Shown: piece by piece, positions 4,767-20,209 of the stretch
How the letters are laid out: the number at the start of each line of letters is the position of its first letter
How positions within the stretch are numbered: the first letter of the stretch is position 1
NCBI GenBank assembly: GCA_964430235.1
Contig: CAYSFS010000001.1
Location: 1 to 59,594, forward strand
DNA: 59,594 bases
From: an uncultured Chitinophaga sp.
GTDB taxonomy: Bacteria > Planctomycetota > Phycisphaerae > Phycisphaerales > SM1A02
Direction of reading: 5' to 3'
Notes under the pieces: generated by a model
The model's database searches: none
What the model saw: the letters and a program-made list of their open reading frames with translations, nothing else
What the model was told of the DNA's origin: nothing
Program-made: the position numbers and the translations under genes

Positions 4767-7166
4767 ATGCGGGATCGCACGCGCGAACCGGGCGATGCCG
4801 CGCCCACCGAGGCCCCCGGCGCATGGATCGCCGCCGTGGCGATGTTCGCCGGGGCCCACGCGTCGTGGTGGGTCCTCGGCGGGCCCGGCGCGTGGGGCGC
4901 GCGCGACGCGCTTCCCGTGGTCGCGGTGGGCTTGGCCGGCGCGGCGGCGGCCATGCACGCGGCGCTGCGCACGCGGTCGCCGCGCGCCATGATCCGGAGG
5001 CTGCGCATTCCCGCGTCGATCGCCGCCGCCGGTGCCGCGGCGGGCGCGCTCCTCGCGATCGCGGGCCATGCGACCGAAATCGACGCCCCCGTGGATCCGT
5101 GCCCGGTGACCCTCGAGGGATCGGTGGCGACGCACCCACGCCCCGTGGACGAGGGATGCGACCGCCTCGCCCGGTACGTCGTGCGCGAGGCGGGCCAATC
5201 GTTCGTGCTCGCGGCGGACACGGCGTGGCGCGGCGACGAACCCGATCCATGCGGTCTCGAGGTCTCGGTGCGCGTGTCCGGACTCGATGCCCTGCCGGGC
5301 CGTGGGTCGCGCATCCGCGTCCGTGGATGGATGAAGGTGCTCGAGCCGTCGCCCTTCCCCGGATCGGGCCGGTCGCGTCGGCGTGCGACGCTCGAGGTGG
5401 AGTCGTCACGCCTGGTCGAGCGCATCGACGCGGGTCCAGGCTCCGGCATGGTGCGGTCCTTGCGTTCGACGGCGAACGCCGCCTTGGTGGCATCGATGCC
5501 CATTGGAACGCCGGCACCCACGGTCGCGCTCGCCGTCGCGATGACCACCGGGGTGCGGATGCACGGGCTCGACGACCCGGCCGCGGACTTCCGGATTGCC
5601 GGCATGAGCCATGTCCTCGCGATCAGCGGATTCAACGTGGCCGTGCTGGTCTCCGCCGCGTCGGTCGCAGCGCGCGGCATGCGCGCGGGCTTCCGGGCCC
5701 GCGCGTTCGTCGCGATCGCGGTCGCCGCGCTCTTCCTGGCGCTCACGGAGCCCGAGACCAGCGTCCTTCGCGCCGGGTGGGGTGCGGTCATCGCGGCCAT
5801 CGCGGCCATCCGAGGAGGGCATGCGCGCGGGCTCGGGACGCTGGGTGCGGTGGCATGCGTGACCATGGCCGTCGACGTCGAGGTCGCGCGGGGCGCCGGG
5901 TTCCAGCTCAGCTACGGGACCGTCGCGGCGCTCCTGACGCTGACGCCTCGCGCCGAGGGACGCTGGAGGCCGCGAATCGAAGCACTTGCCGATCGCATCG
6001 GCGGCGGCGAGGTGTTCCGCAGCATGACCCATGCGCTTGCCGGGGCCGTGATCGCGTCCACCGTCGCGTGGTCCGTGAGCACGCCCATCGCGTTGATGCA
6101 CATGGGTTCGGCGAGCGGGTGGGCGGTGGCGCTCAGCATCGTGACGATGCCGGTGGCCGCCGCGGTCACCGTCGCCGGATGCTGTGCCATGGCCGTCGGT
6201 TGCGTCGCGGGCGTCGACGCCGCGGGCCCGTTCGGATGGGTCGCGTCGGCCTCCGCCACGCTGCTGCAGTGGACCGCGGCGCGAGCCACCGACCTTCCCG
6301 GTGCGGCATGGTGGAACGGAACGACGCCGGGATGGTGGTGCTGCGCCACGCTCACGTGCGTGGCCGCATCATGGCGGGGCAGGGACGCGAACCGCCGACG
6401 AGCGGCCCGATGGTCCCTCGTGCTGCTCGCCTCCGTGTCGTGGTTCGGGTGGACCGCATCGCACCGCGTGACCCCGAGCGACGGAGCCGTCGAAGTCATC
6501 CGGCTCGCGCTCGGGCAGTCCACATGCACGCTCGTTCGCTCGTCCGACGGGACGATCGTCGTCGATCCGGGAAACGCCATGGACCCGTCCGCGGGCACGC
6601 GACGGATCGTGCCCGCGCTCGCCGAGCTCGGCGTCCGCAGCCTCGACGCGGTGGTGGTCTCGAGGACGCGGTTGGCCTGCATCTCGGCCGTGCCCGAGGT
6701 CATCGATGCATTCGCGCCGCGGGTGATCGTGGTGCGCGCAGCGGACGGTGGCCCGGGTCCGCTCGAGGATCCACGGCGCGGCGCATGGGGCGAAGTGCTC
6801 GCGCACGCGCGGGATTCGGGCGTCTCGGTCATCCAGGCACCGCCCGGCGATTCGGAGGCGATGCGTGGTTCGCTCGGCCGCGCCGCCCATGCAGTTGCAT
6901 GGGCGAACGGCGAACCCGACGACGCCGAACGCATGCTTCTCGTCGGCTCAAGCGCGGTCCGCACGATTCACGCGCCCGACGGGACCACGACCGCGTTCAC
7001 GTGGTCCGATTATGGATGGCGGCCGGCCGACACCACCACCGCGCGGCGCAGCTCGACGCAGTCGCCCGCGATGCTCCCGTCATCCGCGAGCATGACGATC
7101 TCGAACGGCGAGTCCGCGAGTTCCGCGCGGAGTTCGAACGACGCATCGCCCTTCGCCATGCGGTGA
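4767..7166 (+). CDS. comEC: ComEC/Rec2 family DNA internalization channel protein
   Basis: 799-aa multi-TM ORF. The competence-domain motif MSHVLAISGFNVAVL is followed by an MBL-like C-terminal domain (VEVIRLALGQSTCTLVRSSDGTIVVDPGN). The last ~50 codons overlap the convergent gene ending at 7010. Confidence 0.82.
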   Translation: MRDRTREPGDAAPTEAPGAWIAAVAMFAGAHASWWVLGGPGAWGARDALPVVAVGLAGAAAAMHAALRTRSPRAMIRRLRIPASIAAAGAAAGALLAIAGHATEIDAPVDPCPVTLEGSVATHPRPVDEGCDRLARYVVREAGQSFVLAADTAWRGDEPDPCGLEVSVRVSGLDALPGRGSRIRVRGWMKVLEPSPFPGSGRSRRRATLEVESSRLVERIDAGPGSGMVRSLRSTANAALVASMPIGTPAPTVALAVAMTTGVRMHGLDDPAADFRIAGMSHVLAISGFNVAVLVSAASVAARGMRAGFRARAFVAIAVAALFLALTEPETSVLRAGWGAVIAAIAAIRGGHARGLGTLGAVACVTMAVDVEVARGAGFQLSYGTVAALLTLTPRAEGRWRPRIEALADRIGGGEVFRSMTHALAGAVIASTVAWSVSTPIALMHMGSASGWAVALSIVTMPVAAAVTVAGCCAMAVGCVAGVDAAGPFGWVASASATLLQWTAARATDLPGAAWWNGTTPGWWCCATLTCVAASWRGRDANRRRAARWSLVLLASVSWFGWTASHRVTPSDGAVEVIRLALGQSTCTLVRSSDGTIVVDPGNAMDPSAGTRRIVPALAELGVRSLDAVVVSRTRLACISAVPEVIDAFAPRVIVVRAADGGPGPLEDPRRGAWGEVLAHARDSGVSVIQAPPGDSEAMRGSLGRAAHAVAWANGEPDDAERMLLVGSSAVRTIHAPDGTTTAFTWSDYGWRPADTTTARRSSTQSPAMLPSSASMTISNGESASSARSSNDASPFAMR

Positions 7167-19144: not shown

Positions 19145-20209
19145 TCAGGGCTTCGCCAGGCGTTCGAGCTCGCGCGCGCCGGGCGCGCCCGAGTCCTCCA
19201 CCGGGATCCCGGCGAGGAGCTCCTCGATCACGCGGTCGGCGCCGACGCCGTCGGCCTGCGCGTTGAAGTTCAGCTGGATGCGGTGGCGCAGCACCGGGCG
19301 CGCCATCGCACGCACGTCGTCCACCGTGACCGACGGGCGGCCGGCGAGCAGCGCGCGGGCCTTCGCCGCGAGCACCAGGAACTGGCTCGCGCGCGGGCCG
19401 GCGCCCCAGGAGACGTAGTCCGCCACGGCCTTCGGCCGCTCGGGCGCACCGACCTCCTGCGCGGAGCGCGTCGCGCGCACCAGCCGCAGCGCGTACCGCA
19501 CCACGTGATCGGCGACGGGCACCTCGCGCACCAGCGACTGCATCGCCCGCACGTCGTCCTCGGAGAGGACGGAACCGCCGGGCACCGAGGGCGTGCCGGT
19601 GGTCCGGCGCACGATCTCGGCCTCCTCGTCCGCGGTCGGGTAGCCGACCATGATCTGCAGCATGAACCGGTCGAGCTGCGCCTCGGGCAGCGGATAGGTG
19701 CCCTCCTGCTCGATGGGGTTCTGCGTGGCGAGCACGAAGAACGGGCCGGGCAGCGCGTGGTTCACCCCGCCGACCGTGACCTGGCGCTCCTGCATCGCCT
19801 CCAGCAGCGCGCTCTGCGTCTTGGGCGGCGTGCGGTTGATCTCGTCGGCAAGCACGACGTTCGCGAAGATGGGGCCGGGCACGAACCGCATGCGGCGGGT
19901 GCCGGTCGAGCGGTCCTCCTCGATCACCTCGGTGCCCGTCATGTCGCTCGGCATGAGGTCGGGCGTGAACTGGATCCGCGAGAACCCGAGCGACATGCTG
20001 CGTGCGAGCGTCGAGACCAGGAGCGTCTTCGCGAGGCCCGGCACTCCCTCGATCAGTGCGTGCCCGCCGCATACGAGCGCCACGAGCACCTCGTCGATCA
20101 CGCGGTCCTGCCCGACGATGGTCGCGTGCACCGCCGCGCGCAGGCGGGCGGCCGCGTCCTGCACGTCGGCCGGCGTCCTCATGGTCTGCTGCGCGCGGGA
20201 TTCCTGCAT
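19145..20209 (-). CDS. MoxR-family AAA+ ATPase
   Basis: Walker A region GHALIEGVPGLAKTLL, Walker B VLADEINRTPPKTQSALLEAMQE and FFVLATQNPIEQEGTYPLPEAQLDRF are present. Start ATG 20209 was chosen; 20182 is also possible. Confidence 0.95.
   Translation of the reverse strand: MQESRAQQTMRTPADVQDAAARLRAAVHATIVGQDRVIDEVLVALVCGGHALIEGVPGLAKTLLVSTLARSMSLGFSRIQFTPDLMPSDMTGTEVIEEDRSTGTRRMRFVPGPIFANVVLADEINRTPPKTQSALLEAMQERQVTVGGVNHALPGPFFVLATQNPIEQEGTYPLPEAQLDRFMLQIMVGYPTADEEAEIVRRTTGTPSVPGGSVLSEDDVRAMQSLVREVPVADHVVRYALRLVRATRSAQEVGAPERPKAVADYVSWGAGPRASQFLVLAAKARALLAGRPSVTVDDVRAMARPVLRHRIQLNFNAQADGVGADRVIEELLAGIPVEDSGAPGARELERLAKP

Follow-up and report, generated by a model that had tools for sequence, protein, structure and literature searches.

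To our knowledge, the operons that join a MoxR ATPase of the MRP type with a DUF58 protein and BatA/von Willebrand factor A (vWA) proteins are among the most widespread bacterial clusters without a known molecular function. The phenotypes associated with them go from aerotolerance to envelope integrity. Chaperone pairs of MoxR and vWA proteins with known clients are NorQ/NorD, RavA/ViaA, CbbQ/CbbO, and BchI/BchD, where an AAA+ hexamer of the MoxR class acts with a vWA partner that carries a metal ion-dependent adhesion site (MIDAS). In this work, an extended operon with such a core was analyzed in a stretch of DNA of 59,594 nucleotides (nt), hereafter the window, which was deposited as an uncultured Chitinophaga sp. 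and is placed by GTDB in the Phycisphaerae of the Planctomycetota (assembly GCA_964430235.1, contig CAYSFS010000001.1, positions 1 to 59,594). The operon is formed by eight minus-strand genes, named g1 to g8 in the order of transcription: a MoxR ATPase (g1), a DUF58 protein (g2), two membrane vWA proteins (g3 and g4), a giant membrane-anchored protein (g5), a Q-rich protein (g6), a predicted exported toroid (g7), and a predicted exported protein with a CBM51-like domain (g8). By comparing sequences and gene order in about 160 related loci, designated by L-numbers, the operon was shown to be conserved across Phycisphaerae and to be composed of three evolutionary units, namely, A (g1–g4), B (g5+g6), and C (g7+g8). 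The MoxR/DUF58/vWA core is of a known kind and the extended architecture is the new part; in the literature searched, no paper joined MoxR/DUF58 with Planctomycetes, or BatA/NPCBM/DUF4159 with such an operon, and none described the architecture in its extended form.

In the general model of MoxR function (PMC3495828), the substrate is brought in by the vWA protein and its remodelling falls to MoxR; the MoxR/vWA pairs are covered in PMC9976466, which includes NorQ/NorD, and in PMC3893208. Pairs of the NorQ/NorD type have as clients enzymes of the cytoplasm or the membrane that depend on remodelling or on the insertion of a cofactor, whereas in the window there is no evident enzyme client and the candidate partners would be periplasmic. 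The Bat set of Bacteroides (BatI; annotated example from B. finegoldii, L170) resembles the window in that it starts with MoxR and DUF58 and has vWA proteins inserted in the membrane by a BatA-type hairpin at the N-terminus. It contains two short vWA proteins of about 330 amino acids (aa), two TPR proteins, and two proteins of the BatD family, while in the window there are two proteins of about 750 aa, each with vWA and GATase1-like regions and a C-terminal anchor, followed by g5–g8. No match to TPR, BatD, or SH3 domains was obtained at E ≤ 0.01 in any of the eight products. A previous interpretation made from the letters of this DNA (the sequence-only reading) had compared the first genes with the Bat module; the comparison is right for MoxR, DUF58, and BatA_N/vWA and does not extend to the classical set of short vWA, TPR, and BatD proteins.

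By homology, the operon MoxR-DUF58-DUF4159-fourth gene of the alphaproteobacterium Sinorhizobium meliloti (L169) has the order and the families of g1–g4, and the hidden Markov models (HMMs) built on the window families matched its four consecutive genes with E-values of 2.6e-112, 1.1e-19, 3.3e-16, and 3e-10. The S. meliloti operon ends there, without giant, Q-rich module, toroid, or CBM51 gene, whereas that of the window continues with g5–g8. Unit A (MoxR, DUF58, g3, and g4) is a widespread and separable module of four genes; the border between core and extension, which had been drawn after the fifth gene, has to be moved, since the widespread unit comprises genes 1–4, as in Sinorhizobium, and the giant is separate. 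A broadly conserved operon of Rhizobium, RL3499–RL3502, whose mutation causes envelope and morphology defects, is cited in PMC5700661 and PMC3893208. This operon of R. leguminosarum (Vanderlinde et al. 2011) presumably belongs to the same type as L169 and unit A.

In the window, the eight genes form one tightly packed block running from 20209 down to 7010, and every open reading frame (ORF) is free of internal stops. The GC content of the window is about 73%, and the third-position GC (0.86–0.98) tracks the called frames of the eight consecutive genes. The extent of the block is thus the one that had been proposed, and so are the ORF boundaries, apart from the end of MoxR: its stop is at 19145, and the ORF ending at 19131, which had been taken for it, is in a different frame. 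Between the end of g1 (19145) and the start of g2 (19114) there is a gap of 30 nt. The remaining six junctions are stop/start overlaps of 4 nt, with exactly the sequences first described: GTGA 18167–18170, ATGA 15969–15972, ATGA 13657–13660, GTGA 10031–10034, GTGA 9276–9279, and ATGA 8197–8200. Motifs like GGAGG were located 6–10 nt upstream of four of the overlapping starts. Considering that overlaps are conserved in relatives and that these Shine-Dalgarno-like motifs are present, translational coupling across the genes of the block is plausible; a fixed stoichiometry of the products, suggested by the overlaps, and a single transcript of 13 kilobases would be conjectures. None of the eight genes has a paralogue in the rest of the window. 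The coordinates of all features are collected in Table 1.

Table 1: Genes of the MoxR/DUF58/vWA block and the elements at its borders, with positions in the window.
Feature	Position	Strand	Description	Characterized by / remarks
g1	19145-20209	-	MoxR (MRP-type) AAA+ ATPase, 354 aa	AAA_3, AAA_lid_2
g2	18167-19114	-	DUF58 vWA-like protein, 315 aa	DUF58, MIDAS motif
g3	15969-18170	-	BatA_N hairpin of two transmembrane segments, vWA, GATase1-like (DUF4350-type), C-terminal transmembrane segment, 733 aa	HMMs, hydropathy
g4	13657-15972	-	Hairpin of two transmembrane segments, vWA with intact MIDAS, GATase1-like, C-terminal transmembrane segment, 771 aa	Family HMMs, PDB profile
g5	10031-13660	-	Giant membrane-anchored protein, 1209 aa	Hydropathy, periodicity, family HMMs
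g6	9276-10034	-	Q-rich low-complexity protein, 252 aa	Conserved motifs, fusion to g5
g7	8197-9279	-	Predicted exported single-domain (alpha/alpha)6 toroid, 360 aa	Repeat HMMs, AlphaFold2
g8	7010-8200	-	Predicted exported all-beta protein, 396 aa, C-terminal NPCBM/CBM51-like domain at about 290-392	Family HMM, Foldseek
MoxR/fpg spacer	20210-20231		22 nt between MoxR ATG and fpg TTG	Read directly
fpg	20232-21083	+	Divergent border of the block, head-to-head with MoxR	Begins MPELPE
dnaA	21415-22809	-	Beyond fpg	
comEC	4767-7166	+	Convergent border	Overlaps g8

The giant g5 is too variable to serve as a query for related loci, and the toroid g7 was used instead. Scanning the GTDB species representatives with the toroid motif gave at least 592 relatives, among which the best 80 were analyzed, and only loci with enough flank were counted. 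The best 80 of each scan stay near the clade of the query; breadth beyond Planctomycetota was sampled through a plasmid collection. All eight genes were found in the same order in L001–L003, with a giant only 29–36% identical. For the other genes, the identity to the orthologues was 65–70% for g1 (L001–L003), 53–63% for g2, 32–35% for g3, 41–47% for g4, 60–64% for g7, and 25–31% for g8. Given g7 in the 80 best GTDB species, g8 was present in 75/75 loci, g6 in 70/72, g5 in 57/59, g4 in 47/56, and g3 in 44/53. The same order was kept in about 20 long contigs of a second, more divergent set of metagenomes from the Joint Genome Institute (JGI), and two still more distant loci had the arrangement (g4)-giant-toroid-NPCBM-like protein. 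Overlapping stops and starts are also frequent in the relatives: 35 of 46 at g2>g3, 49 of 51 at g3>g4, 35 of 69 at g5>g6 (plus 17 fused), 61 of 74 at g6>g7, and 36 of 60 at g7>g8. The toroid and g8 are an obligate pair that almost always follows the giant (57/59), and unit C has been seen so far in Planctomycetota only. Co-occurrence of the distal genes with MoxR/DUF58 outside the window had been set beforehand as the observation on which the extended system would stand or fall; they do occur together in the g7-anchored counts, in L001–L003, and on the plasmid pPL62-3 described below. In L002 (4347–5317 and 10001–14456), DUF58 is split in two, g3 and g4 form one ORF of 1481 aa, and the giant is cut short, the following ORF holding its C-terminus; these oddities are probably assembly indels, and the g3-g4 fusion of this locus was not counted as evidence.

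The products of unit A were assigned by family HMMs and motifs. The g1 protein matched AAA_3 (4.6e-64, 214.6 bits against a cut-off of 27) and AAA_lid_2 (8.8e-20, 70.7 bits against 22.7), and its translation has the Walker-A-like GVPGLAKT. In g2, matches to DUF58 (5.3e-36) and VWA_CoxE (3.3e-7) were found, with the MIDAS motif DASGS at residue 89; a DUF58 gene adjoining MoxR is also seen in L001–L003, L165, L168, and L169. Both g1 and g2 are predicted to be cytoplasmic because the hydropathy scan gave no transmembrane segment in them. The same scan placed transmembrane segments of g3 at residues 9–27, 59–77, and 688–706. This protein matched BatA_N (6e-17, 62.3 bits) and TIGR02226 (3e-18), and its family includes BatA in 42 of 43 members, VWA_2 in 36, and DUF4350 in 7. 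A motif search found no DxSxS in g3, so its MIDAS would be degenerate. The MIDAS of g4 reads DRSRS, as had been noticed together with the DASGS of g2, and D101, S103, and S105 are invariant in the family alignment. The vWA match of the g4 window protein was below the cut-off (0.0023), and in the family VWA was detected in 19 of 46 members, VWA_2 in 7/46, and GATase1_like (PF07090) in 4/46 (best 2.9e-8). When the g4 profile was compared with the PDB, the vWA proteins 4rck, BatB 3ibs, and 4jdu and the GATase1-like structures 3soz, 2gk3, and 3rht were retrieved. Judged by these domains, g3 and g4 are paralogous in design (hairpin, vWA, GATase1-like region, and C-terminal anchor), with an intact MIDAS in g4 only. 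The BatA-type protein BB0173 was located by experiment in the inner membrane with the vWA domain facing the periplasm (PMC5700661). The HMMs thus recovered the assignments of MoxR, DUF58, BatA_N, and toroid repeats made in the sequence-only reading, with the vWA of g4 sub-threshold in the window and present in 19 of 46 orthologues.

In unit B, the hydropathy scan gave transmembrane segments of g5 at residues 27–45 and 144–162. The predicted parts of this protein are the N-terminal transmembrane region, a beta-rich (Ig-like) region, an amphipathic helical rod of about 350 aa, and, toward the C-terminus, a part rich in Gly. Residues from about 600 to 960 are almost free of proline and have an amphipathic periodicity of 3.5 residues (z up to 7.5), which is consistent with the coiled-coil or rod that had been suggested. 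No Pfam family was found in the window protein, and Big_7 (Ig-like) was detected in 10 of 36 family members. The likeness to DUF4175, also suggested, could not be sustained: the profile (PF13779) had no match at E ≤ 1 in g5 of the window and matched 3/36 family members at this threshold, the best being the distant member P0073, which aligned with profile positions 182–328 and reached 27.0 bits against a cut-off of 27.3. An exhaustive profile search with g5, whose top 150 entries were without exception close full-length members, gave no path to DUF4175. DUF4175 proteins and g5 are alike in general architecture, that is, a membrane anchor and a long low-complexity or helical protein. The profile search of the PDB with g5 returned a designed helical bundle only, and tblastn against plasmids with P0073 and the giant of Gemmatirosa (see below) gave nothing new. 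The relatives of g5 are proteins from Planctomycetota/Phycisphaerae metagenomes. At E ≤ 1e-30, the exhaustive profile search counted 2193 cluster representatives. From these searches, the g5 family is a very large unannotated family of membrane proteins with a predicted rod-like shape.

The Q-rich g6 has a run of 9 Q within a stretch of 58% Q, a conserved N-proximal helix, and the conserved C-terminal motif EWGxLPxRVR...YxRLTEEYYRRLAEE. A single ORF of 1390–1610 aa comprises both g5 and g6 in about 24 related loci, among them the distant L004, L005, and L097. Because of this fusion, g6 is best described as a C-terminal module split off from the giant, g5 and g6 being by homology one protein that is divided in this genome. 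Both poly-Q and a signal-like N-terminus are present in g6, which had been called a secreted poly-Gln protein; its status as an independent protein is not borne out.

The toroid g7 of unit C matched the Pfam profiles SQHop_cyclase_C (PF13243; 7e-11, 42.2 bits with a cut-off of 26.1) and Prenyltrans (PF00432; 2.8e-8, 34.0 bits with a cut-off of 26.5). The AlphaFold2 model showed a single toroid of 12 helices, with a predicted local distance difference test (pLDDT) of 85 and a predicted TM-score (pTM) of 0.84. With Foldseek, structures at a TM-score of about 0.6 were the single-domain toroids 8pak and 8paj, which are like squalene-hopene cyclase (SHC), the sugar transaldolase AprG, the hydrolase MmpH, and beta subunits of prenyltransferases; GH76 was also a neighbor. 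The SHC-like toroids, the prenyltransferase beta subunits, and AprG share with g7 the 12-helix toroid and repeats of the PFTB/QW type, and they differ from it in that g7 is 15–20% identical to them, has a signal-like N-terminus and an invariant C-terminus, and lacks DxDD. The sequence similarity to squalene-hopene cyclase itself is confined to the repeat segments. Where the identity of g5 falls to about 30%, that of g7 is still 58–64%, and by this measure the toroid is as constrained as the MoxR ATPase. The motif DxDD was absent from g7 and from its aligned relatives in two sets (0/49 and 0/12) and present in 1/76 of a third. The assignment of g7 as a class II terpene cyclase was rejected, taking into account the lack of DxDD, the single domain of 360 aa compared with about 630 aa in the two-domain beta-gamma enzymes, and the predicted export. 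At the extreme C-terminus of g7 (8197–8230), the motif ...P-x-R-Y-L-P-I-F-Q-(K/R/Q) is invariant in all aligned relatives, the most distant included, and may serve as a peptide for docking or sorting. Tandem copies of the toroid gene are present in the metagenomic loci L105 (5334–7839) and L137 (9446–12074). Signal-like N-terminal segments were given by the hydropathy scan for g6, g7, and g8, and the motif search found no twin arginine in these N-termini; a cofactor client among g6–g8 exported by the twin-arginine (Tat) route was rejected on this ground.

No Pfam match, NPCBM included, was found for the window protein g8, and the profile search of the PDB with g8 gave nothing. Among its positional orthologues, NPCBM was detected in 11 of 55 family members (best 7.3e-38), and the HMM of the Phycisphaerae g8 orthologues found the NPCBM protein of L005 with 5.6e-24. 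The AlphaFold2 model, obtained with 9 sequences, had a pLDDT of 70–91 in the C-terminal part and 56 overall. With this model, the top Foldseek matches were CBM51 structures (probability 1.0, E from 1.6e-5 to 1.7e-4). By family HMM and predicted fold, g8 is a divergent and fast-evolving protein of the NPCBM/CBM51 type with putative sugar binding, where previously no recognizable family had been seen. Its C-terminal domain has the fold of the CBM51/NPCBM modules of clostridial and streptococcal glycosidases (2vmi, 7jrm, and 2ygl). Unlike these modules, g8 is a stand-alone protein, predicted to be exported, with a beta-rich N-terminal half that has no assignment and no glycosidase attached.

Outside the class, plasmid pPL62-3 of Planctomyces sp. 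SH-PL62, from the Planctomycetia (L166/L167, NZ_CP011276.1), carries all eight families in one cluster, with their order permuted. The order there is PQQ propeller, SIMPL, toroid, MoxR, DUF58, g3, g4, N-part of the giant, C-part of the giant, g6, and NPCBM protein. The toroid was matched by the g7 HMM with 1.5e-77, g6 is without poly-Q, and the NPCBM protein has 912 aa with the CBM51 region at 756–896. Since the linkage was kept through rearrangement, this plasmid is good evidence for functional association. Apparent frameshifts are present in its toroid, MoxR, and DUF58 genes, and the giant is divided between two ORFs, of which the second starts with a signal-like segment of its own; the plasmid may hold a second copy of the system that is decaying or diverging. 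The PQQ-like beta-propeller protein, of about 710 aa, lies beside the cluster on pPL62-3 (L167, 6434–8563) and in L004 (10172–12304), is absent from the window, and may be a further accessory component.

On the megaplasmid of Gemmatirosa kalamazoonensis (Gemmatimonadota; L168), MoxR-DUF58-g3 are directly followed by a giant of 1298 aa, as in the window minus g4. The N-terminal 520 aa of this giant matched the g5 HMM at 3.3e-30; it has a region rich in Q/G/S and ends with a C-terminal motif like that of g6, ...YRALVDEYFKALA, a likeness at the level of the motif only, with no match of the g6 HMM. This locus differs from the window in that the giant is one polypeptide and the g4 homologue is 5 kilobases (kb) upstream. 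Neither a toroid nor a CBM51 gene was detected at L168.

Considering the domains and the analogy with known systems, we tentatively favor, at somewhat less than even confidence, a reading in which the block encodes an assembly anchored in the inner membrane and spanning the periplasm, with a glycan-recognizing head, that is assembled or remodelled by the MoxR module and serves envelope architecture. The proteins g3, g4, and g5 would be embedded in the cytoplasmic membrane and reach with most of their mass into the periplasm, where the MIDAS of g4 would bind an acidic ligand on the Glu/Asp-rich giant. The rod formed by g5 and g6 would project across the wide periplasm of planctomycetes and would carry or position the toroid/CBM51 pair, which in turn would recognize a glycan, perhaps lipid-linked, of the wall or of the outer layers. 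The MoxR hexamer, with DUF58 as vWA adaptor, would use ATP on the Arg-rich cytoplasmic loops or tails of g3 and g4, and by this action the complex would be assembled, remodelled, or reset. The net role would be to build or maintain the architecture of the envelope. The role given to g1 and g2 is proposed by analogy with other MoxR/vWA pairs, since the known MoxR hexamers work through a vWA/MIDAS partner. A head of the glycan type is suggested because g8 matches CBM51 by family HMM and fold; among the structural neighbors of g7 there are sugar-binding or sugar-active toroids, namely, AprG (GlcNAc/GalNAc), MmpH, and GH76. The envelope role is in line with the defects of the RL3499–RL3502 mutants, as cited above, in the presumed equivalent of unit A.

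Several observations weigh against this envelope assembly, some of which concern the connection between unit A and the rest. The g4>g5 overlap was found in 4 of 55 loci only, compared with 49 of 51 for g3>g4, and as a rule the two genes are separated by a gap, in some loci of more than 100 nt; the ATGA shared by g4 and g5 in the window is therefore an exception. Unit A was detached from B/C in about 16% of the species (9/56 species loci), g5–g8 lack g3/g4 upstream in L040, L054, L060, L064, L066, L068, and L083, and in L054 MoxR is 7 kb away behind unrelated genes. Because of the detached loci and the usual g4/g5 gap, it is suggested that unit A may serve B/C loosely or serve further clients, and the description of the core as hard-wired to the secreted genes was too strong, the linkage as such being real. 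The pair g7-g8 also occurs without the giant (L085, L090, L138, and L143). As regards the structures, the ATPase is predicted to be cytoplasmic while its presumed target domains are periplasmic, the topology was taken from a hydropathy scan only, a TM-score of about 0.6 for the g7 model does not separate toroids of the terpenoid type from those of the glycan type, and the model of g8 is poor outside the C-terminal domain. The same observations on linkage, together with the occurrence of unit A alone in Sinorhizobium, are what would be expected if the units were co-located and functionally separate, unit A being a general chaperone of membrane proteins and B/C an independent envelope structure or adhesin without physical coupling. 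We consider this somewhat unlikely, given that about 84% of the species, over deep divergence, have A next to B/C, that they stay together in permuted order on the Planctomycetia plasmid, that the giant of Gemmatirosa comes directly after MoxR-DUF58-g3, and that the g4/g5 junction of the window is itself an ATGA overlap.

An exported enzyme pathway, in which g7 would be catalytic (a glycan hydrolase, lyase, or transferase, a terpenoid cyclase, or a prenyltransferase), g8 a targeting carbohydrate-binding module, and the rest would anchor or activate them, would be in line with the conservation of g7, which equals that of MoxR, and with its many polar and aromatic positions that do not vary, among them H140, D191, C197, and C227; moreover, CBM51 modules are usually found with glycosidases, and both (alpha/alpha)6 glycosidases and terpene cyclases are among the structural neighbors of g7. 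It is nevertheless unlikely, taking into account the absence of the class II cyclase DxDD, the likeness to squalene-hopene cyclase limited to repeat motifs, the TM-score of about 0.6 at most to any enzyme, and a signal-like N-terminus that would take g7 away from the cytoplasmic isoprenoid diphosphates. Quite unlikely, in turn, is an aerotolerance or oxidative-stress operon of the Bat type, as proposed for BatI of Bacteroides fragilis, with the extra genes as a decoration of the lineage. MoxR, DUF58, BatA_N, and vWA are common to both, and the vWA of g4 matched the structures of BatB 3ibs and of 4jdu, described as an 'aerotolerance-related membrane protein', but the eight products have no TPR, BatD, SH3, or redox domain, the related records come mostly from lake and other water-column metagenomes, and the abstract of a Leptospira study states that no specific function of the Bat homologues was demonstrated experimentally (PMC3557215). 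A MoxR-vWA system of biological conflict directed against phages is very improbable. The bpMoxR model matched g1 at 4.3e-11, and ternary conflict systems with MoxR and vWA are known (PMC7159879); against this, AAA_3 scored far better on g1 than bpMoxR, no beta-propeller or effector domain and no PADLOC match were found in the eight products, and the operon is near-universal in the class, not patchy, with a stable position by dnaA and fpg in all four loci that reach that far. A defence system was rejected on account of the empty PADLOC result and the housekeeping synteny beside dnaA.

A more specific form of the envelope assembly was also considered, namely, an ATP-driven machine specific to Planctomycetota. 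In this form, MoxR and DUF58 would work through the g3/g4 hairpins on a periplasmic MIDAS clamp that assembles or tensions a rod (g5+g6) of tens of nanometres, whose tip would be the glycan-binding head g7+g8 on the wall or outer membrane; we regard it as speculative and improbable.

Regarding the borders of the block, the order dnaA, fpg, and MoxR operon is kept in the four loci that reach that far (the window and L001–L003), even with a giant about 30% identical, and the block has a stable chromosomal position beside the replication initiator gene dnaA. The MoxR/fpg spacer is 106–192 nt in L001–L003, compared with 22 nt in the window. Its sole AT-rich hexamer in the window is TATACT, 6 nt from the MoxR ATG; this suggests that a promoter in the spacer, if present, would give a near-leaderless mRNA, and otherwise the promoter would be inside the neighboring coding sequence of fpg. 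A scan for consensus promoters and terminators, which is uninformative at 73% GC, gave no minus-strand site. At the other end, g8 and comEC run tail-to-tail into each other and share 157 nt (7010–7166) at their 3′ ends, with coinciding third codon positions. The homology of comEC continues through the overlap, and the close relatives L006, L007, and L012 have a similar one of about 85–154 nt; no space is left for a terminator after g8, and antisense 3′ ends are implied. The tRNA and Rfam scans found nothing in the window. Farther away, the GC content is lower at 29000–36500 and 52000–54000 (0.66–0.69, compared with 0.72–0.75 elsewhere in the window), and the ORFs of these stretches have an unusually low first-position GC, with a weak dockerin match in one of them (33659–35512); they may be acquired or compositionally distinct genes. 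A minus-strand ORF of 1426 aa (44992–49272) has a SASA domain of the sialate-O-acetylesterase type and a GH2 sugar-binding domain in the C-terminal quarter only, and no domain was assigned in its first 1000 aa or so.

The core is linked to units B and C by gene order, overlaps, gene fusion, and a linkage that survives rearrangement, and its connection to the giant family and to the toroid/CBM51 pair suggests that the output lies outside the cytoplasm and concerns glycans or the envelope. To a module that has awaited a function for decades, the operon adds concrete candidate periplasmic partners, and four families of hypothetical proteins that are near-universal in Phycisphaerae receive an annotation at the level of domains. 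If the machine-like form of the envelope assembly is true, the output of MoxR-MRP/DUF58/BatA operons would be the mechanical organization of the periplasm and the envelope, and the accessory genes of planctomycetes would show what sort of target stays hidden in the other phyla.

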